A stretch of 30,870 bases of DNA. Source: an uncultured Thermoleophilia bacterium (lineage in GTDB: Bacteria; Actinomycetota; Thermoleophilia; UBA2241). Location of the stretch: positions 1 to 30,870 of the forward strand of contig CAIWHY010000083.1 in assembly GCA_903912585.1 (NCBI GenBank). The letters are read 5' to 3'. The position numbers and the translations under genes were made by a program. Positions 4,475 to 23,056 of the stretch are shown one piece after another. The first letter of the stretch is position 1, and each line of letters starts with the position of its first letter. Under the pieces are notes generated by a model. It searched no databases and had not been told where the DNA came from. It worked only from the letters and a program-made list of their open reading frames with translations.

Positions 4475-5500
4475 ATGCGAATCGTTGTTTTGGACGACAT
4501 CGGGATGGGCGCAGAGGATCTTCACCGCCTGGAGGCTCACGGCCATGTACGCGTCTTTTCCGCCGCGCCGTCCGACGACGCCGAGGTCATCGAGCGCATA
4601 CGAGGCGCAGAGGTCGTGATCTCCGGTTGGACGAAGATCGGCAGCGACGTCCTGCAGGCCGTGCCCGAGCTCCGGCTCGTCTCCCTCTGGGCTACGGGCC
4701 TCGACAACATCGATCTGGCGGCGGCAAGCGCGGCGAACGTGGCCGTCTGCAACGTGCCCTCGTATGCGACGGATTCAGTGGCCGAGCTCGCCCTCGGCTT
4801 GATGCTTGCGGTGATCCGCAAGATCCCTGCGGCCGACCGGCATCTGCGGCGCACGCTGCGAAGCGACTGGCGACCGTTCCAGGGAAGCCAGCTTCGCGGC
4901 AAGACCCTCGGCATCGTCGGCACCGGGGTGATCGGCCAGCGGGTGGCCCAGCTGGGCCACTGCCTCGGCATGCCCCTCCTTGGCCACGATCTGCGGGTGT
5001 CGGAGGCACTGGTGAACGATGTGGGCATGCGCTACACGTCGCTGCCGGATCTCTTCGCGAACAGCGACGTGGTAACGCTTCACGCGCCCCTCACAGCGGA
5101 CACCGAGCACCTCGTGGGCGCGTCCCTCCTGGGCCTTCTCTCTGACACGGCGGTGATCATCAACACCTCTCGCGCGGGCCTCATTCAGCAGGATGACCTG
5201 TACGCGGCGCTAGCGGACAAGGCCATCGCGGGCGCCGGACTCGACGTCATCGACCTTGAGTGCGAGAGCGGTCGGCGGCTCCTGGAGCTCGAGAACGTCG
5301 TCGTCACTCCCCATATCGGCTTCTACACGCATGAGGCTCTGGGGCAGCTGACGGCGATCTGCGTGGAGAATGTCGTCCGCTTTCTGGATGGGGACCCGAT
5401 CAACGTCGCCGGCCCTTGGCCCGCTTCACGCGCCATGACGGCGCCCGCGGGCGGGGAGACCGGCGACACGAGCGACGAGGTGAGCAGCGATGGCGCCTGA
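4475..5500 (+). CDS. D-isomer-specific 2-hydroxyacid dehydrogenase (NAD-dependent)
   Basis: WATGLDNID, Rossmann GIVGTGVIG, VTLHAP, INTSRAG (Arg), LDV, VTPHIGFYT (His); GAGGAG RBS. Confidence 0.93.
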   Translation: MRIVVLDDIGMGAEDLHRLEAHGHVRVFSAAPSDDAEVIERIRGAEVVISGWTKIGSDVLQAVPELRLVSLWATGLDNIDLAAASAANVAVCNVPSYATDSVAELALGLMLAVIRKIPAADRHLRRTLRSDWRPFQGSQLRGKTLGIVGTGVIGQRVAQLGHCLGMPLLGHDLRVSEALVNDVGMRYTSLPDLFANSDVVTLHAPLTADTEHLVGASLLGLLSDTAVIINTSRAGLIQQDDLYAALADKAIAGAGLDVIDLECESGRRLLELENVVVTPHIGFYTHEALGQLTAICVENVVRFLDGDPINVAGPWPASRAMTAPAGGETGDTSDEVSSDGA

Positions 5501-6785
5501 GCGACAGAGAATCTCGATACCGTACGGCGCCGGCTCGCTGGAGGCGGATATCCCTCAGGGCGGCACCCTGTTCATGGGCGAGTTCGAGGAGCTCTCGGCG
5601 CTCGATGACTTCAAGTCGACTCTTCTCGCGAGACTCGACCAGCCGACCGGGACCGATCCCCTTCGCGAACTCGCCAGCGGCCGCGCCAACACGCTCATCC
5701 TCGTCGACGACAACACGCGGCACACGCCGGTCGACCGCATCCTGCCCGTACTTCTCGACTACCTCAACGAAAGCGGCCTCGCGGACGAGGACATCCAGAT
5801 CCTCACGGCATCCGGAACACATCGCGTCATGACCGACGACGAGGTGCTGGCCAAGGTGGGTGCGGAGGCGCATCGCCGGGTCACGATCACTCAGCACGAC
5901 TGTCGCGACCTGGAGTCGATCGTCGAGCAGGACTCCGTCAGCAGCGGCGCCAGCATCATCCCCGTGCAGATCAACAGGAAAGTCCTCGACGCCGACCTCA
6001 TCATCGGGCTGGGAAGCATCTTCCCCCACAGCGATGCCGGCTTCACCGGCGGGGCCAAGATCGTGCAGCCGGGTGTCTGCGGGACGACCACTACGGCTGC
6101 CACTCACATCGCGGCGGCGCTTCTGGATGAGATCCCTCTGGGAGACGCCGACTCCCTGTGCCGGCTCGGCATGGAGGAGGTCGCGCGCAAGGTGGGCCTC
6201 GACTTCATCGTCAATGTCATCCAGGACCATCGCGGCCATCTCCTGGACATCGTCGCCGGCGACGTCGTCGCCGCCCATCGCCTCGGCGCCGAGGTCTCGC
6301 GCAGGGCGCACGGCGTCGTCGTCCCCGAGCCGGCGGACGTGGTCATCGTGAGCTCGTATCCCGGCGACATCGACTGGTGGCAGGCGGAGAAGTGCCTCGT
6401 CGCCGCGTACTTCGCCGTCAAACCCGGCGGCTTCATCGTGTTCGCCGGTCCCTGCTACGAGGGCCTCGTACACAACCATCCACGGCTGCGCGACTGGTTG
6501 CCGCTGTCGTTCGAGGAGGCTCGGACGAAGGCGGCCGGCATCGACCCGGCCGACACCGAGGCGGATCTCATCGCCGCCGACGTGGCCATCGTCAACGCCA
6601 AGGTGCGGGAGAAGGCCACCATCCTCATGGTGACCGACGGCCTGTCGGACGCCGACGTCGCCCTGCTCGGCTACCGGCGCATGCCGGACCTCCAGTCGGC
6701 GGTGGATCGTGCGCTGGAGCGTGCCTCGGGTGGCAGCGTGGGCGTCCTGCCGTACGGTGGGATCTGCCTGCCGATCGTCGGGTGA
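5490..6785 (+). CDS. larA: Nickel-pincer-dependent LarA-family hydroxyacid racemase/epimerase
   Basis: DDNTRHTP (Asp/Arg), ASGTHR (His), FPHSDAGFTGGAK (His and cofactor-binding Lys), TH, DIDWWQAEK (Gln/Lys), following the recalled LarA catalytic pattern. Confidence 0.9.
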   Translation: MAPERQRISIPYGAGSLEADIPQGGTLFMGEFEELSALDDFKSTLLARLDQPTGTDPLRELASGRANTLILVDDNTRHTPVDRILPVLLDYLNESGLADEDIQILTASGTHRVMTDDEVLAKVGAEAHRRVTITQHDCRDLESIVEQDSVSSGASIIPVQINRKVLDADLIIGLGSIFPHSDAGFTGGAKIVQPGVCGTTTTAATHIAAALLDEIPLGDADSLCRLGMEEVARKVGLDFIVNVIQDHRGHLLDIVAGDVVAAHRLGAEVSRRAHGVVVPEPADVVIVSSYPGDIDWWQAEKCLVAAYFAVKPGGFIVFAGPCYEGLVHNHPRLRDWLPLSFEEARTKAAGIDPADTEADLIAADVAIVNAKVREKATILMVTDGLSDADVALLGYRRMPDLQSAVDRALERASGGSVGVLPYGGICLPIVG

Positions 6786-8158: not shown

Positions 8159-9001
8159 TCAGGGGCGGGACCAGAGGTCCGTGGCGCTCAAGCCCAGCTC
8201 CTGTTCGACTTCGAGACGGTAGGCGGCGACGGCGCCCCGGGTGAAGGGTCCGGGGGGATCATCGAATTCGCGGTCCTCGACGACCGCGACCGCCTGGACT
8301 TCGCGCGCCGCTCCGGCCAGAAACGCCTCCGCGGCCGCGAGCGCGTCCTCGGTGCGGCACGTACGCTCGGAGACGTCCAGATGCCTCATGACGATGCGAC
8401 GCGTGATGGAATCCAGGATGCCGGCGTCGAGAGGCGGCGTGCACACCTCACCCTGCGGGGTGACCCAGAAGAAGGCGGCCTGCTGCACCTCCATGACGCG
8501 GCCGTCCGGCGTCGCGAGCAGCGCCTCGTCAAAGCCGCGCTCCTGAGCCGCACGCTTCGCCACCATGTTGCCGGCGTAGGAGAGGCTCTTCGCGCCGGCC
8601 AGCACCAGCCTCGGCGTGTCGATGACGAACGCCAGCCGGGCCGGCGGCCAGTCGAGGTACGGCTCGAGGAACACGATGCGCCTGCCGCCGCGCGTCAGCA
8701 CGATGCGCAAGTCGCTGAAGACGGGGCCGGCCCAGTCGAGGAGCGCGACGATCTCGCTCTCGAGCAACTCGCGCGGATACGGCAGGCGAAGCGTCGCGCA
8801 GGTGCGCGCCAGGCGATCGAGGTGCTCGACGAGCGTGAACGGCCGGCCGGCATAGCAACGCAGATACTCGAACGCGCCGTCTCCACGCAGCATGCCGTCG
8901 TCGTACAGAGGGACGGTCGCCTCGCGGGCGTCGCACAGCACGCCGTCGACGGAGGCCGCCATCTCAGGCGCGCCACTTGAGCCGCGCGCGAGCCCCGTCA
9001 C
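8159..9001 (-). CDS. Fold-type IV PLP enzyme (D-amino-acid transaminase / BCAT / ADC-lyase family)
   Basis: GDGAFEYLRCY, HLDRL, AKSLSY (PLP Lys), GFDEALL, LDSITRRIV, AREVQAV. GTG overlaps the upstream stop; alternative ATG at 8963. Confidence 0.88.
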   Translation of the reverse strand: MTGLARGSSGAPEMAASVDGVLCDAREATVPLYDDGMLRGDGAFEYLRCYAGRPFTLVEHLDRLARTCATLRLPYPRELLESEIVALLDWAGPVFSDLRIVLTRGGRRIVFLEPYLDWPPARLAFVIDTPRLVLAGAKSLSYAGNMVAKRAAQERGFDEALLATPDGRVMEVQQAAFFWVTPQGEVCTPPLDAGILDSITRRIVMRHLDVSERTCRTEDALAAAEAFLAGAAREVQAVAVVEDREFDDPPGPFTRGAVAAYRLEVEQELGLSATDLWSRP

Positions 9002-14306: not shown

Positions 14307-15413
14307 TCACGAGGAAGCCTGCGGCTCGAGCGAGCGCAGGCGATCGAGAAAGAAGTCCATCTCCTCGCGCGTGCCTGTGCTGACCCGCGCCCACCCGGGA
14401 CAGCCGAGCCCGTTGCCGTCGCGCACGATGACGCCCAGAGCCATGAGGGCTTCGCAGACCTTGTCCTGGGGCACGCTCAGGCCCTCGATGGAGACGAGGA
14501 CGAAGTTCGTCTGGCTGGGGACCACGGCGCGACCCATGCTCGCGAGGGCGCTCTCGAGGTACTCGCGCATCTCGATGATCAGGCGCCGGCGCTCGAGTAT
14601 CTGGTCCTGGTGCTTGAGCGCCTCAAGTGCGGCGACCTGCGCCAGCCGGTTGACGTTGAACGGCTGGCGCACCTTGTCGAGAGCATCCCTCACGACCTCC
14701 GGACAGAGGCCGTAGGCGACGCGCAGACCGGCCAGCCCGTAGGCCTTCGAGAACGTCCGGAACAGGCAGACGTTGGGCCTCTCGGCCTGGAGTCTCTGTG
14801 TATCCTCGCGATCGTCCGCGGAGACGAACTCGTTGTAGGCCTCGTCGATCACCACGAGAACGTCCGCCGGGATCTTGTCGACGAAGGCCGCGACCTCGGC
14901 CGCGGGCAGGTAGTTGCCGGTCGGGTTGTTGGGGTTGCACACGATGACCAGCTTCGTGCGCGGAGTGACCGCGGCGGCCATGGCCTCGAGGTCGTGGCCG
15001 AAGTCCGGGAGCAGAGGGATCATCACGGCTTTGGCGTCGCGTCGCAGGCAGATGTCCTCGTACAGCATGAACGACGGGTCTGCAAAGACGACTTCGTCGC
15101 CGTGGTCGAGCAGGGCGTCGCCGAGCAGCTCCAGCAGGTCGTCCATGCCATTGCCGACAGCGATCTCCTCGAGGCGCCGTCCGAAGAGCTCGGCCAGCGC
15201 CTGGCGAAGATCCAGGCAGTCGCCGTCCGGATACCGGTTCACCTCGTCGAACGCCGCCATCACGGCCGCCTTGACCTCGGCAAGAGGCGGCAGCGGGAAC
15301 TCGTTGGACGCCAGCTTGACCACTTCGGTCAGCCCATACTGACGCATGACGTTCTCGATCGGGACGCCGGGCGTGTACGGCACGATGCCCTCGATAGCCG
15401 CAAGGAACCTCAT
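14307..15413 (-). CDS. hisC: Histidinol-phosphate/aromatic aminotransferase (HisC-like, fold type I PLP)
   Basis: PYTPG, KLASNE, RYPD, GNGMDD, CNPNNPTG, DEAY, RTFSKAYGLAGLRV (PLP Lys). Its role in this cluster may be catabolic. Confidence 0.85.
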   Translation of the reverse strand: MRFLAAIEGIVPYTPGVPIENVMRQYGLTEVVKLASNEFPLPPLAEVKAAVMAAFDEVNRYPDGDCLDLRQALAELFGRRLEEIAVGNGMDDLLELLGDALLDHGDEVVFADPSFMLYEDICLRRDAKAVMIPLLPDFGHDLEAMAAAVTPRTKLVIVCNPNNPTGNYLPAAEVAAFVDKIPADVLVVIDEAYNEFVSADDREDTQRLQAERPNVCLFRTFSKAYGLAGLRVAYGLCPEVVRDALDKVRQPFNVNRLAQVAALEALKHQDQILERRRLIIEMREYLESALASMGRAVVPSQTNFVLVSIEGLSVPQDKVCEALMALGVIVRDGNGLGCPGWARVSTGTREEMDFFLDRLRSLEPQASS

Positions 15414-15850
15414 CGCGCCTCCCGCTCTCCCGGACCGTTCCGCCTATGGACGACGATCTTGCCCGCAACGGCGTCGACGGCGATGCGGTCGCCATCCTCG
15501 ATGTCGTCGTAGAAGGCGGGATCGACCTCGTCCACGAGCGGCACTTCCATCGCGATGATGGTCGACACGAGCACCGGCTCCGGCGTCTGGATGACGACGG
15601 CCGCCGGAGCCGTCTTCTTCATGATCAGCCGATACAGGCCGTCGGCCTGCACGACGGAGCTGCCCTTGCCCGTGGGCATGACCAAGACCTTGCCGGCGAC
15701 GCTGCGGCCGTCCAGGCAGTGCCCACTCTCGATCACGCAGCCCGTGTCCGGCTCGCACAGCGCAAAACAGAGGGCGTCTGTCGACAGAAGCGCCTCGCCC
15801 TCCCCGATGCCCTCGGAGATGGGCCGGCATGCGTACTCGTGCTCGCTCAT
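15410..15850 (-). CDS. Aconitase X small (swiveling, DUF126) subunit
   Basis: GEGEALLS, GHCLDGRSVAGKVLVMPTGKGSS, APAAVV, IEDGDRIAVDAVAG; ATGA overlaps at both ends. Confidence 0.88.
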   Translation of the reverse strand: MSEHEYACRPISEGIGEGEALLSTDALCFALCEPDTGCVIESGHCLDGRSVAGKVLVMPTGKGSSVVQADGLYRLIMKKTAPAAVVIQTPEPVLVSTIIAMEVPLVDEVDPAFYDDIEDGDRIAVDAVAGKIVVHRRNGPGEREAR

Positions 15851-17064
15851 TTGACCACCTCTCCAGCAAGGGCTGCTTGGACGGCTTGCGCCAAGGGCCG
15901 CACGGCGTAGCGCTGCCCGTAGACTTGACAGTAGAAGGCGCATTTCTGGGACTCGGTGACGCCAGGCCGGCCGTAGTACGCGTCCCAGCAGCCCGGGATG
16001 TCCATGCAGGTATCGGCGACGACGTGTCCGCCTGCCCGCTGGATGACGCCGAGGAACCCCATGCGCTCGGCGAGCTCGAGCGTGAGAGAGCTGACGAGGA
16101 TCCAGGTGTCGACGGCCAACTGCTTGCCATCCACGAGCGCAGCGACCTCCCCCACCTGGCGGATCGTGAGATGGGGACAGCCGAGCATGGCGTACTCGAT
16201 GGGCCCCGACTCGCCGCTGAACTGCTCGCGCACGCGGTCGAGGTCGGCGTCGGTGATCGTCACGCGATGCTTGACGGCGTTGCCGCCGAAGGCCGCCTCG
16301 ACCGTCGGCGCCTCCGGCGTGATCCCGGCGATGTGGTACATGGCGACGGCGCCGGAGGTGGCGAGCTCAGCGCCGAACTGAACAAAGCCTTCGGGAGTGG
16401 CACGTTTCTCGATGCCCGTGAACACCGGGACCTCAGCTCCCTTGTACTTCTGCGGATACGCATAGCCCAGAAGACTCCAGTCGAAGTCGTCCTCGATCTT
16501 GGCCTCGACTTCGACCAGCACTTCGCCCTTGCGGTTCTCGTCGAGCAGCAAGCCGTACTCGGGCACGCGCCCGGTCACGGCAGCGCAGAGCGCGCTGATC
16601 GACGACTCGCGGTTGCTGCGCGCCCCGAGCACGGAGTTGACGTAGGGAGTGGCGGAGGACTCCGAGAAGGCCACGACCTCGCCGAAGGCGGGCACGTTCT
16701 TCTCGAGCTCGGGCGTGCAGCTCAGCGTCAGCGTCGCACCGATGCGCCGGTAGGCGTCGTTGCTGGCCTGCACCCTGTCCCGACCCTCGTCCGTCAACGG
16801 GCCCAGATGTTCTTCAACGTACCCGGTGTCCATGCTTGGGTTCGTCGTCGGGGAGACGACGCAGCGCGCCCCGAGGTCGAGCAGCTTGGTGACGAAATAG
16901 AGATCGCCCTCTTGGGCGCTGGCCGCGACGTGCGTGCGGGTGATGGGCACCATACGCTTGGCGTAGAAGGCCTTGCCGGTACCTACCTGGACCTTCATCG
17001 CGAGCGCGACGCCTTCGCCATGCTTGCCCGCCAGCATGTCGAGTTCGAGGCTTGTCAACTCCAT
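15847..17064 (-). CDS. Aconitase X large (catalytic, DUF521) subunit
   Basis: MELTSLELDMLAG, TTNP, SCTP, FSESSA, GARSNRE, AAVTGRVPEYGLL, GAVAMYHIAGITPEA, LGCPH, DTC (three Fe-S Cys); GAAGGGAG RBS before ATG 17064. Confidence 0.92.
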   Translation of the reverse strand: MELTSLELDMLAGKHGEGVALAMKVQVGTGKAFYAKRMVPITRTHVAASAQEGDLYFVTKLLDLGARCVVSPTTNPSMDTGYVEEHLGPLTDEGRDRVQASNDAYRRIGATLTLSCTPELEKNVPAFGEVVAFSESSATPYVNSVLGARSNRESSISALCAAVTGRVPEYGLLLDENRKGEVLVEVEAKIEDDFDWSLLGYAYPQKYKGAEVPVFTGIEKRATPEGFVQFGAELATSGAVAMYHIAGITPEAPTVEAAFGGNAVKHRVTITDADLDRVREQFSGESGPIEYAMLGCPHLTIRQVGEVAALVDGKQLAVDTWILVSSLTLELAERMGFLGVIQRAGGHVVADTCMDIPGCWDAYYGRPGVTESQKCAFYCQVYGQRYAVRPLAQAVQAALAGEVVK

Positions 17065-17170: not shown

Positions 17171-17198
17171 ATCATGAACGGTCCCTGCAACGGGTCAA
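17171..17198 (-). promoter_or_regulatory. Candidate internal promoter for the acnX-to-aminotransferase IV sub-operon
   Basis: TTGACC (17198-17193), 16 bp, CATGAT (17176-17171). Confidence 0.5.
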
Positions 17199-17215
17199 GC
17201 TGCCGGGGCCCGGGG

Positions 17216-17229
17216 TCTCGTATGCTGGA
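17216..17229. promoter_or_regulatory. Candidate IclR operator B
   Basis: Minus strand TCCAG-CATA-CGAGA(C), 17 bp upstream of TTGACC. Confidence 0.6.
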
Positions 17230-17474
17230 TGGGAATGACCTGCACCGGGCGGGACGGGATCGGCTTCAGGCCGCCGGGAGCGGAATCCGGCCGATCGGAG
17301 AGTGACGTCCAGACGAGCTCGCCCGGAGCGCCGGATGCGGCGCGCCCACTGGACGCGCTGGTCGAGGAGGCGCGCAGGGAGCGCAGCGCCTGAGCGCGTG
17401 CCACGCGCAGACGAGCGCGACCAAGGCTCGCGGCGACGCCGCACGACCCTTCGTCCCAGGCTGCGCCCGTCGGC

Positions 17475-20413: not shown

Positions 20414-20421
20414 CCGGCGCG

Positions 20422-20435
20422 TCCAGAGTACTGAA
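20422..20435. promoter_or_regulatory. Candidate IclR operator C
   Basis: (G)TCCAG-AGTA-CTGAA(C), a near-perfect palindrome 16 bp upstream of TTGAAG on the minus strand. Confidence 0.65.
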
Positions 20436-20445
20436 CTCGTTTTCG

Positions 20446-21367: not shown

Positions 21368-21388
21368 CGAGAGGGGGGCGCATTTGCG

Positions 21389-21402
21389 TCCGTAATGCGA
21401 GA
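21389..21402. promoter_or_regulatory. Candidate IclR operator E
   Basis: (G)TCCGT-AATG-CGAGA(C), 16 bp upstream of TTGCAT. Confidence 0.6.
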
Positions 21403-21418
21403 CTCCCGCCTGGCGCCC

Positions 21419-21532: not shown

Positions 21533-23056
21533 GTGACCATCATCCTGGACGGCGCGTCCCTGACGGCCGAGAGGCTCGTGCGCATCGCGCGCGGCGGCGA
21601 GAAGGTGGAGCTGGACCCGGCGGCCGTGGAGCGCATCCGGGTCTGCAGGGTCATGCTCGAGGACAAGATCAAGAACCGCGAGATCATGTACGGCACCAAC
21701 ACCGGCATCGGCGAGTTCAGCGAGATCGTGCTCGACGACGACCAGGTGCAGCAGTTCCAGCGCTTCCTCGTCTACAACCACGCCGCCGGCATCGGCGCGC
21801 CCGCCCCGATAGAGGTCGTGCGCGGCGCCATGGCGGCCCGCGCCAACGTCCACGCCCACGGCAACTCGGGCAACCGCCCCGAGATCACGCAGACTTTGGT
21901 CGCGCTGCTCAACGAAGGCGTGACCCCGCTGATGAGCTCCAAGGGCTCGGTGGGCGCCTGCGGCGACCTCGCCCCGATGGCCCAGATGGCGCTGTCGATG
22001 ATGGGCGAGGGCGAGTCCTTCTACCGGGGCGAGCGCATGCCCACCCGCGAGGCGATGGAGCGCGCCGGCATCCCGATCCCGGGGCTGGAGGCGCGCGACG
22101 GCTTGGCGACGATCAACGGCTCCAACGTCCTCACGGCGATGAGCGCGCTGCTCTGCTGGGACGCGGACCGCTGGCTGCGCCAGGCCGAGATCGCGGCTTC
22201 CATGAGCCTCGAGGCACTGCTCGCCAACCTCAAGCCGTACAACAGCAAGCTGCACGAGCTGCGCGGCTTCGCAGGCGCGGTGCGCAGCGCCGCGGCCATC
22301 CGCGCCTGCATCGCGGAGAGCGACCTCGCCACCGGCAAGATCAAGACCAAGGTGCAGGACGCCTACTCGATGCGCTCCACGCCGCAGGTGATCGGGGCCG
22401 CGCACGACGCCCTCAAGTGGGCCAGAAGCCAGGTGGAGATCGAGCTCAACGGCGTCGGCGACAACCCGATCTTCGTGCCCGAGGACAAGCTGACGCTGAC
22501 CGGCGCCAACTTCCAGGGCACGCCGGTCAGTCTCCCGATGGAGATGGTCGGCCAAGCCATCACCATGGTCTGCGTGCTCAGCGAGCGCCGGCTCAACCGC
22601 ATGGAGAACACCGCGACGAGCCAGGGCCTGCCCGACTTCCTCACGCCGAACCCGGGCTTCTACAGCGGCCTCATGCTCAGCCAGTACACTGCCGACATGC
22701 TCATCACCGAGCAGCGCATCCTCGCGGCGCCGGCGAGCACGATGAGCATCCCGGCGGCGGCCGATCAGGAGGACTTCGTCTCCATGGGCATGAACACTGC
22801 CCTCAAGAACCGGCAGATCCTCGAGAACGCCTGCGGCGTGCTCGGCATCGAGTTCATGGCCGCGGCGCAGGCGCTCGACTTCCGCGACTTCACGCCCGGC
22901 AAGGGTGTGCGCGCCGCCAAGGCGGTCATCCGCAAGCACGTCGAGCACCTCGACGTCGACCGGCCGCTCTACCCGGACCACAACGCCATGGCCGCGCTCG
23001 TCGAGTCGGGCGAGATCCTGGAGGCGGTCGAGGCCGCCGTCGGGCCGCTGGGCTGA
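21533..23056 (+). CDS. hutH: Histidine ammonia-lyase-like (HAL/PAL/TAL family) enzyme with an Ala-Cys-Gly MIO triad
   Basis: YGTNTG, LVYNHAAG, GSVGACGDLAP, LATINGS, QDAYSMRSTPQV, DNP, GANFQG, QEDFVSMG; AAGGAG RBS before GTG. Confidence 0.88.
   Translation: MTIILDGASLTAERLVRIARGGEKVELDPAAVERIRVCRVMLEDKIKNREIMYGTNTGIGEFSEIVLDDDQVQQFQRFLVYNHAAGIGAPAPIEVVRGAMAARANVHAHGNSGNRPEITQTLVALLNEGVTPLMSSKGSVGACGDLAPMAQMALSMMGEGESFYRGERMPTREAMERAGIPIPGLEARDGLATINGSNVLTAMSALLCWDADRWLRQAEIAASMSLEALLANLKPYNSKLHELRGFAGAVRSAAAIRACIAESDLATGKIKTKVQDAYSMRSTPQVIGAAHDALKWARSQVEIELNGVGDNPIFVPEDKLTLTGANFQGTPVSLPMEMVGQAITMVCVLSERRLNRMENTATSQGLPDFLTPNPGFYSGLMLSQYTADMLITEQRILAAPASTMSIPAAADQEDFVSMGMNTALKNRQILENACGVLGIEFMAAAQALDFRDFTPGKGVRAAKAVIRKHVEHLDVDRPLYPDHNAMAALVESGEILEAVEAAVGPLG

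Follow-up and report, generated by a model that had tools for sequence, protein, structure and literature searches.

What does an aconitase X (AcnX) act on in a bacterium where no gene for hydroxyproline or mevalonate metabolism lies near it? The question is raised by a stretch of 30,870 nucleotides from an uncultured Thermoleophilia bacterium (assembly GCA_903912585.1, contig CAIWHY010000083.1, positions 1 to 30,870 of the forward strand), hereafter the window, which encodes a two-subunit AcnX coupled to a HisC-like aminotransferase. Only two functions are known for the large AcnX family, cis-3-hydroxy-L-proline (C3LHyp) dehydratase and archaeal mevalonate-5-phosphate (phosphomevalonate) dehydratase, and for the remaining bacterial subclasses the authors of the structures left the function as an open question. 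An earlier note on this DNA, made from the sequence alone, had proposed a new substrate, undergoing an imidazole-lactate/urocanate-type conversion or being a demethylated hydroxy-betaine.

Here we present a comparative analysis of this AcnX and its relatives, which points to histidine breakdown. The enzyme is probably a hut-linked hydratase or dehydratase of an imidazole hydroxy-acid. Whether it is, more precisely, a [4Fe-4S] imidazole-lactate dehydratase that forms urocanate we regard as an even call, and we hold a little more loosely the wider prediction of a transaminative route from histidine (and D/L-imidazole-lactate) to urocanate that is independent of HAL and found in anaerobes of at least six phyla. 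The key step of such a route would be the dehydration of a free alpha-hydroxy acid by an AcnX [4Fe-4S] enzyme, with a regiochemistry new to the family. HAL is the classical source of urocanate. What is new here is not the AcnX family but the activity predicted for it and the branch of the pathway, and a literature search on imidazole-lactate dehydratase, on AcnX (DUF521/DUF126) in histidine catabolism and on imidazole-pyruvate pathways found no relevant paper. From the evidence set out below we infer what the substrate is, in which direction the reaction runs and how the substrate binds.

An intact active site

Both subunits match their families well above threshold, the large one PF04412 (E=2.9e-118, 395.5 bits against a cut-off of 31.5) and the small one PF01989 (E=1.7e-23, 82.7 bits against a cut-off of 27). 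The SCTP, GCPH, DTC and GKGSS motifs picked out in the earlier note are all in place, as S-C116-T-P, G-C296-P-H and D-T-C353 in the large subunit and G-K-G-S64-S65 in the small one. Cys116, Cys296 and Cys353 align with the cluster ligands Cys110, Cys283 and Cys342 of the Thermococcus kodakarensis (Tk) AcnX; Glu135, Ser136, Ser137, Lys374 and Tyr378 align with Tk Glu129, Ser130, Ser131, Lys361 and Tyr365; and Ser64 of the small subunit aligns with the catalytic Tk Ser62. Asn75 is likewise kept in the large-subunit core in comparison with the Tk and Agrobacterium tumefaciens (At) structures, from which the roles of these residues are known (PMC8184944). Throughout the clade to which the window proteins belong the core is near-invariant, its residues being found in 82-89 of 89 large subunits and Ser64 in 97 of 97 small subunits, and the stretch K62-G-S-S-V-V-Q68 is invariant among the small subunits. 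The catalytic core is thus intact, and the pair is predicted to form a [4Fe-4S] AcnX heterodimer. An AlphaFold2 model of the large subunit, built on an 11-sequence alignment, had a mean pLDDT of 67 with the active-site stretch 115-154 below 50; its quality was insufficient for searching by fold or interpreting the pocket, and it was not used.

Neither of the known AcnX types

Among solved structures the closest match is the archaeal phosphomevalonate dehydratase 7CNR (220 bits for the large and 62 bits for the small subunit), and the Agrobacterium C3LHyp dehydratase structure scores 130 bits. Landmark residues of both activities are replaced. Where the At enzyme has Asp203, which binds the amine or ring nitrogen, the window protein has Ala47; Thr72 is Val66, Asn294 is Ser137, Trp35 (Leu27 in Tk) is Ala30 or falls in a gap, and Ile206, which holds the pyrrolidine together with Asp203, Thr72 and Trp35, has no counterpart. 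The phosphate loop of the Tk enzyme, Gly48-Val49-Ser50...Asn53, is shortened by four residues to A48-S49-A50-Q51, and Asn53 is left without a counterpart. The clade keeps a loop of its own, with Arg43, His45, Ser49, Gln51 and Asp54 in 87-88 of 89 members, and the window proteins carry the complete clade signature of R-x-H-V-[AS]-x-S-x-Q-x-x-D in the large subunit and K-G-S-S-V-V-Q in the small one.

An exhaustive homologue search over 1.8 billion representatives returned the query cluster, then five clusters at 39-52% identity that share the loop, and, lower down, many AcnX lineages with about 32-41% identity. When 126 full-length representatives were placed in a tree, the query group formed one branch (SH-like support 98), apart both from the phosphomevalonate-dehydratase clade anchored by Thermococcus P0160 and from the clade with Asp47 and Asn137, which is the C3LHyp clade. 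NF051439, the NCBI equivalog model for C3LHyp dehydratase, gives the window large subunit 210 bits against a cut-off of 700; for comparison, C3LHyp-type large subunits that bear the landmarks score 366-570 bits and the Thermococcus phosphomevalonate dehydratase scores 250.

Could the protein nevertheless be one of the known types after all? Its Pfam families are the same, and several orthologues are auto-annotated by JGI as 'cis-L-3-hydroxyproline dehydratase', yet the replaced landmarks, the low model score and the separate clade all stand against this, as does the gene context: hydroxyproline epimerase and pyrroline-2-carboxylate reductase genes occur neither in the window nor among the recurrent neighbours of the 78 related loci described below, no mevalonate genes lie nearby, and the host is a Thermoleophilia bacterium. 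The earlier note had likewise seen no proline racemase, pyrroline reductase or mevalonate genes, and no gene for proline racemase, pyrroline-carboxylate reductase or mevalonate metabolism was found among the large open reading frames of the window. We therefore consider membership of a known type highly improbable. Because the landmark residues, the NF051439 score and the phylogeny agree, the window AcnX is assigned to neither functional type; the phylogeny and the comparison of substrate-binding residues that the earlier note had proposed as a check have now been carried out, and both bear out its suggestion of a new substrate. Bacterial subclasses that have neither set of landmarks, Type-IIc to Type-IIf, have been described as uncharacterised (PMC8184944). 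The clade is presumably one of these, although no members of the four subclasses could be recovered from the figure or supplement of that paper.

A recurrent hut neighbourhood in a survey of 78 loci

Neighbouring genes were surveyed at 78 orthologous AcnX loci (53-90% identity) on contigs from one genome per species; open reading frames were clustered, and recurrent clusters were named by Pfam. The loci come from Actinomycetota, Chloroflexota, several families of Bacillota, Synergistota, Thermodesulfobacteriota and Ignavibacteriota, and in every one the gene for the small subunit (AcnXS) lies 3' of that for the large subunit (AcnXL). Around them recur a LarA-family racemase (42 loci, with a divergent LarA-like gene at 13 more), the TRAP transporter DctPQM (38), urocanase (HutU; 33), a GntR/FCD regulator (32), formiminotetrahydrofolate cyclodeaminase (25), a D-2-hydroxyacid dehydrogenase (2-HADH; 19), glutamate formiminotransferase (16), a HisC-like aminotransferase (15), the methyltransferase MttB (15), imidazolonepropionase (HutI; 12) and HAL (11). 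At least one hut gene lies within 10 kb in 43 loci, and a hut or LarA-type gene in 66. Typical gene orders are FTCD-HutU-HutI-DctPQM-AcnXL-AcnXS-LarA (locus L016), FTCD-HutU-HutI-AcnXL-AcnXS-LarA-2HADH (L034), HAL-AcnXL-AcnXS-HutU (L074) and LarA-AcnXL-AcnXS-HutU-FTCD-HAL (L058). Of the substrates floated in the earlier note, the imidazole-lactate/urocanate type is strongly favoured by this context of hut, LarA, 2-HADH and HisC-like genes in six phyla.

The same survey changes how the operon in the window is to be understood. The earlier note had seen the AcnX pair as heading a sub-operon of methyltransferase, aminotransferase and molybdenum-enzyme genes. This sub-operon is real, but it is derived: MttB together with the molybdenum-enzyme neighbours recurs only in the closest relatives of the window, and MttB alone is also found in other Thermoleophilia and in two Syntrophaceticus-like loci. 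Sister Thermoleophilia (L004-L011) have the standard order AT<, 2HADH>, AcnXL>, AcnXS>, LarA> (AT, aminotransferase; arrowheads give gene direction). The 2-HADH encoded in the window is the orthologue of the gene directly 5' of AcnX in these sister loci (56-64% identity), and also of those in the AcnX-LarA operons of L013, L016 and L018 and in Clostridiaceae/Wukongibacter loci (42-46%), while the window LarA is the orthologue (50-66% identity) of the gene directly 3' of AcnX in 42 loci. Judged by orthology and gene order, the AcnX pair has left the interval between 2-HADH and LarA in this lineage and moved into the MttB/molybdenum operon, and its conserved functional partners are 2-HADH, LarA, the HisC-like aminotransferase and the hut enzymes. 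In the window the 2-HADH and LarA genes (4475-6785) now lie 9 kb off and HAL 4.5 kb off, and urocanase is on another contig.

Other features of these loci deserve mention. Corrinoid proteins with a B12-binding domain stand beside the MttB genes near AcnX in L004, L005, L007, L008, L048, L052 and L072; none was found in the window. A divergent protein that has only the Lar_N domain (about 415 amino acids, with an H-T-D-F motif and no GG-K motif) is encoded at L025:14691-15965, at L040:16226-17473 and in 11 further loci, after DctPQM and 3' of AcnX, in Clostridium, Oscillospiraceae and Sedimentibacter loci without a standard LarA. The TRAP binding protein resembles C4-dicarboxylate DctP proteins, and its solved relatives gave no hint of the substrate, carrying generic names only.

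A racemase partner that appears to share the substrate

The LarA homologue in the window keeps both catalytic histidines, the cofactor lysine and the nickel-binding histidine, and LarC, which is required for the nickel cofactor, is encoded in the genome. The specificity of LarA enzymes is set by the two residues after the second catalytic histidine and by the residue before the catalytic lysine, which are Phe-Phe and Val in lactate racemase and Tyr-Lys and Gln in malate racemase (PMC7583248). In the window LarA the loop reads P-H-S-D and a Glu precedes the catalytic lysine, and the AcnX-linked group as a whole has Ser/Cys-Asp (Cys-Gly in some Thermoleophilia) and mostly Glu. Since acidic or small residues here take the place of the Tyr-Lys of malate racemase, the pattern argues for a cationic or hydrogen-bond-donating side chain, such as imidazole, and not for a dicarboxylate. 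Imidazole-lactate is not among the compounds tried in the LarA papers.

The pocket of AcnX appears to change together with that of its partner. In two Desulfobacteraceae loci (L029:1354-7300 and L032:7236-13200) two AcnX-LarA units stand tail to tail, and in the second unit the AcnX loop reads HVSLAHYPSD instead of HVALSxQxxD, while the adjoining LarA has PHSY instead of PHSD. Because the two loops change together, AcnX and LarA appear to share a substrate, which would be a 2-hydroxy acid; the second unit looks like one for a second, different 2-hydroxy acid. A further change in the AcnX pocket is confined to one lineage: residue 30 of the small subunit (15764-15763 region), at the substrate contact held by Trp35 in At and Leu27 in Tk, is Ala in 13 of 13 Thermoleophilia and Tyr in the other 84 sequences.

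Nearly all carriers of the clade have urocanase

At the level of whole genomes, urocanase is present in 49 of 50 carriers of the clade, the exception being a 1.5-Mb metagenome-assembled genome (MAG). Cultivable species that carry the clade include Clostridium pascui (DSM 10365), Acidaminobacter hydrogenoformans (DSM 2784), Desulforhopalus singaporensis (DSM 12130) and Pelotomaculum propionicicum. An even sample of 301 genomes from the phylum of Pelotomaculum contained urocanase in 102, among them all seven clade carriers of the sample. The clade occurs in four of the seven genomes that have urocanase and no HAL (HutU+ HAL-), compared with three of the 95 that have both (HutU+ HAL+; Fisher p=2.7e-4). 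A stronger version, in which the module would be found mainly in HAL-less bacteria, was rejected, given that 47 of the 50 carriers have HAL; only the enrichment among HutU+ HAL- genomes survives.

Pelotomaculum propionicicum, a MAG related to it and three further MAGs from Bacillota make up the HAL-less carriers, and they belong to one subclade. Their AcnX operons hold a GntR regulator, one or two HisD-like dehydrogenases and a sugar-type ABC transporter, and in Pelotomaculum-type loci the operon continues through a zinc-dependent alcohol dehydrogenase (Zn-ADH) and a HisC-like aminotransferase to HutU. Some member of these operons must supply urocanate.

Two side observations concern the same group of pathways. 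In loci of HAL-less Pelotomaculum/Peptococcaceae-type genomes (L063:10001-21197, L066, L057, L055 and L074) the AcnX pair heads an operon with one or two HisD-like genes, members of the histidinol-dehydrogenase family, Zn-ADH and short-chain dehydrogenase/reductase genes, a sugar/polyol ABC transporter, a HisC-like gene and urocanase, a content that suggests the catabolism of histidinol or of an imidazole polyol. The genomes behind L013 (Dethiosulfatibacter aminovorans), L059, L025 and L054 have up to 14 HAL-family matches each and two to four urocanase paralogues in two length classes; such numbers suggest lyase and hydratase families for histidine derivatives.

A predicted route from imidazole-lactate to urocanate

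In the route that we favour, histidine would be converted to imidazole-pyruvate by the HisC-like aminotransferase, and imidazole-pyruvate would be reduced to D-imidazole-lactate by the D-specific 2-HADH. The LarA-type nickel racemase would interconvert D- and L-imidazole-lactate, AcnX would dehydrate imidazole-lactate (2-hydroxy-3-(imidazol-4-yl)propanoate) to urocanate, and urocanase would carry the urocanate into the normal Hut pathway. Imported imidazole-pyruvate or imidazole-lactate could provide an alternative entry, and in other organisms the TRAP transporter may import external imidazole-lactate. By analogy with the two known AcnX enzymes, the Fe-S cluster would act as a Lewis acid that binds the leaving hydroxyl, and the proton would go to Ser64 of the small subunit. 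Such a route would spend NADH and hand the amino group to 2-oxoglutarate with no release of ammonia, which could suit fermenters; imidazole-lactate from the environment would be salvaged as well, in both enantiomeric forms.

Several points weigh against this proposal. The known AcnX enzymes take the alpha proton and expel a beta hydroxyl; the hydroxyl of imidazole-lactate is alpha to the carboxylate, and therefore a flipped binding mode would be needed, in which the imidazolium and not the carboxylate stabilises the carbanion. The carboxylate would then perhaps sit in the Arg43/His45/Ser49/Gln51 pocket, with the imidazolium as the electron sink. All of the canonical carboxylate-binding residues (Ser136, Lys374, Tyr378 and Ser65) are kept. 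Many loci hold two paralogous AcnX pairs, whose split of roles the proposal does not account for. The genome counts take no account of relatedness and include many MAGs; the present genome is itself among the carriers with HAL, and the module is no general replacement for that enzyme. Finally, Ala30, the coupling to the aminotransferase and the MttB/molybdenum neighbours might mean that the substrate is modified in the Thermoleophilia lineage.

Alternative explanations

The difficulty with the regiochemistry would disappear if the pathway were the same and the substrate a beta-hydroxylated imidazole acid, dehydrated in the canonical direction. One form of this idea has 2,3-dihydroxy-3-(imidazol-4-yl)propanoate passing through an enol to imidazole-pyruvate, from which the HisC-like enzyme would make histidine, with LarA epimerising C2; in another, 3-hydroxy-3-(imidazol-4-yl)propanoate and urocanate would be interconverted. 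Both crystal structures show which residues hold the carboxylate alpha to the abstracted proton, and all of these are conserved, a pattern that fits a beta-hydroxy acid better than it fits imidazole-lactate, and the translational coupling of AcnX with an aminotransferase suits a keto-acid product. Epimerisation of sugar acids at C2 has precedent among LarA homologues (PMC7583248, PMC11770544). The HAL-less loci, with their HisD-like alcohol-to-acid dehydrogenases, Zn-ADH and sugar/polyol transporter, could deliver a polyol-derived dihydroxy acid. However, a path that ends at imidazole-pyruvate and histidine still needs HAL and leaves the HutU+ HAL- enrichment unexplained, and whereas imidazole-lactate is widespread, hydroxylated imidazole acids are not, to our knowledge, common metabolites. 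Taken together, we think a beta-hydroxylated substrate unlikely, though it is the main rival to the favoured route. We find it more doubtful that AcnX has been recruited in Thermoleophilia to a modified histidine skeleton handled by MttB and the molybdenum enzyme, be it the hydroxy-acid of a ring- or N-methylated or 2-thiolated histidine (from hercynine or ergothioneine breakdown) or a demethylated hydroxy-betaine. The AcnX pair does share one operon with the MttB and molybdenum genes in the window and its closest relatives, more MttB genes lie just upstream, related loci encode corrinoid-binding proteins, and Ala30, in all 13 Thermoleophilia small subunits, enlarges the pocket. Yet the specificity loop of the large subunit is identical in members without a nearby MttB, the latter is present at only 15 of the 78 loci, and the standard 2HADH-AcnX-LarA-HutU order is found in sister Thermoleophilia that share Ala30. 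Carnitine-type substrates, moreover, are unconnected to the hut genes that dominate the context of the clade, and with MttB neighbours restricted to Thermoleophilia and a few Syntrophaceticus-like loci, the hydroxy-betaine (norcarnitine) suggestion of the earlier note is not favoured.

A third kind of substrate would take AcnX downstream of the imidazole ring altogether, as a hydratase or dehydratase of a TRAP-imported hydroxy-dicarboxylate such as malate, citramalate/mesaconate or tartrate, at the stage where glutamate is fermented after histidine breakdown. This would be canonical AcnX chemistry; Arg43, His45, Ser49 and Gln51 could bind the second carboxylate, among solved structures the malate racemase Mar2 comes closest to the LarA partner, and the likeness of the TRAP binding protein to DctP proteins, mentioned above, would fit. 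On the other hand, the LarA partner has Ser-Asp and Glu at the positions where malate racemase has Tyr-Lys and Gln; glutamate mutase, methylaspartase and citramalate lyase are not among the recurrent neighbours; and neither the HisC-like aminotransferase nor the link to HAL-less genomes is explained, so that we judge a dicarboxylate substrate improbable. Dehydration of 2-hydroxyglutarate was rejected on chemistry, there being no acidifying group next to C3.

The locus

The AcnX genes and the main features around them are collected in Table 1. The ATG at 17064 is taken as the start of the large-subunit gene, because homologues are 404-405 amino acids long and align from residue 1; it has a GGGAG ribosome-binding site 6 nt upstream. 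A longer open reading frame with a TTG start at 17190 was rejected on the same grounds. The large- and small-subunit genes overlap by an ATGA at 15850-15847, and the small-subunit and HisC-like genes by another at 15413-15410, in agreement with the translational coupling described in the earlier note. From AcnX through MttB to the class IV aminotransferase gene that ends at 8159, the minus strand forms a run with gaps of at most 27 nt or overlaps. Two more MttB genes lie upstream of AcnX on the same strand, and beyond them, on the opposite strand, are genes for an IclR regulator, the HAL-family lyase and phosphoenolpyruvate carboxykinase. The left part of the window holds the 2-HADH and LarA genes, which overlap by 11 nt (5490-5500), an M20 peptidase and a peptide ABC transporter. 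The assembly contains one AcnX gene and one urocanase gene. The FTCD_C gene found 5' of AcnX in the closest relatives (L001-L003) has neither a copy nor a remnant in the window.

Table 1. Genes and promoter-like site around the AcnX genes of the window (positions in the 30,870-nt stretch)
Feature	Position	Strand	Remarks
D-isomer-specific 2-hydroxyacid dehydrogenase (2-HADH)	4475..5500	+	
LarA-family nickel-pincer racemase homologue	5490..6785	+	
Class IV aminotransferase	9001-8159	-	last gene of the operon
Mo-bisPGD oxidoreductase	11037-8998	-	
2x[4Fe-4S] protein	11523-11038	-	
PadH-like FAD/NAD reductase	12779-11514	-	
Pyrrolysine-free MttB methyltransferase	14279-12801	-	
HisC-like class I/II aminotransferase	14307..15413	-	368 amino acids; one of 3 HisC-family genes in the genome
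AcnX small (swivel) subunit	15410..15850	-	146 amino acids; PF01989
AcnX large (catalytic) subunit	15847..17064	-	ATG 17064 to TGA 15847; 405 amino acids; PF04412
Promoter-like TTGACC-16-CATGAT	17171..17198	-	consensus match; within the 410-nt gap 5' of the AcnX genes
HAL-family lyase (PF00221)	21533..23056	+	4.5 kb away from AcnX

The earlier note had also placed the AcnX genes behind a candidate promoter of their own under IclR control, and the IclR part of this finds no statistical support. A promoter-like TTGACC-16-CATGAT is present 5' of AcnX (one consensus match where 0.2 would be expected), but the supposed IclR operator is at chance level: the pattern GTCYRG-N4-CYRGAC has 16 matches with at most two mismatches in the whole window against 21 expected, and near AcnX, at 17215-17230, it matches only with two mismatches. 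Imperfect copies of the pattern are found in three intergenic regions that bear promoters, at 17215-17230 (5' of AcnX), 20421-20436 (between MttB and iclR) and 21388-21403 (5' of HAL).

Significance and comparison with known systems

With only two functions established for the AcnX family, this clade offers a clear prediction, the formation of urocanate from imidazole-lactate, and with it a predicted substrate for an uncharacterised group of LarA racemases. If the prediction is true, histidine breakdown, a textbook amino-acid pathway, would have a second entry, which would explain how some urocanase-containing anaerobes manage without HAL, and an Fe-S enzyme acting by Lewis-acid chemistry would perform a dehydration that otherwise needs coenzyme A (CoA) esters and radical chemistry. 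Microbial imidazole propionate is made from urocanate. The carriers of the clade include the gut organisms [Clostridium] symbiosum, Lawsonibacter and Cloacibacillus, so the route could matter for host-relevant metabolite pools and, in gut Clostridia, Oscillospiraceae and Synergistetes, would be a source of urocanate that has so far gone unnoticed.

Among characterised systems, the closest is the phosphomevalonate dehydratase of T. kodakarensis and Aeropyrum pernix (Type-IIb; 7CNR/7CNS; PMC8184944, PMC10040528). It is likewise split, with the large subunit followed by the small, and has the three-cysteine [4Fe-4S] site, the Glu-Ser-Ser, Lys and Tyr core and the catalytic serine of the small subunit. 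It differs in sequence (about 37% identity), in its G-V-S...N53 loop as against the shorter R-x-H-V-A-x-S-x-Q-x-x-D here, and in its isoprenoid context as against a bacterial hut context, and it falls in a separate clade. The C3LHyp dehydratase of A. tumefaciens shares the superfamily, the fold, the Ser/Lys/Glu arrangement and the restriction to the first half-reaction of aconitase, but it holds a [2Fe-2S] cluster with a different third ligand, in contrast to the Type-II cysteine set found here. Type-IIc to Type-IIf resemble the clade in being bacterial, split and without the landmarks of both known activities, and no function was proposed for them (PMC8184944).

Outside the AcnX family, HAL (HutH, PF00221) is alike in yielding the same product, urocanate, by elimination of an alpha substituent; it feeds the same urocanase, and its gene often adjoins the AcnX genes (L074, L053). 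It is unlike in having an unrelated fold and MIO (methylidene-imidazolone) chemistry, and in removing ammonia from histidine rather than water from a hydroxy-acid. The phenyllactate dehydratase FldABC of Clostridia, with its activator FldI, relies on CoA activation, a radical [4Fe-4S] dehydratase and an ATP-driven activator. Its pathway runs in the same order as the one predicted here, from an aminotransferase through a 2-hydroxyacid dehydrogenase to the dehydration of an aryl-lactate to an aryl-acrylate. In the predicted AcnX reaction, however, a free acid would be dehydrated at a Lewis-acid cluster, which is plausible only because the imidazolium can stabilise the carbanion.

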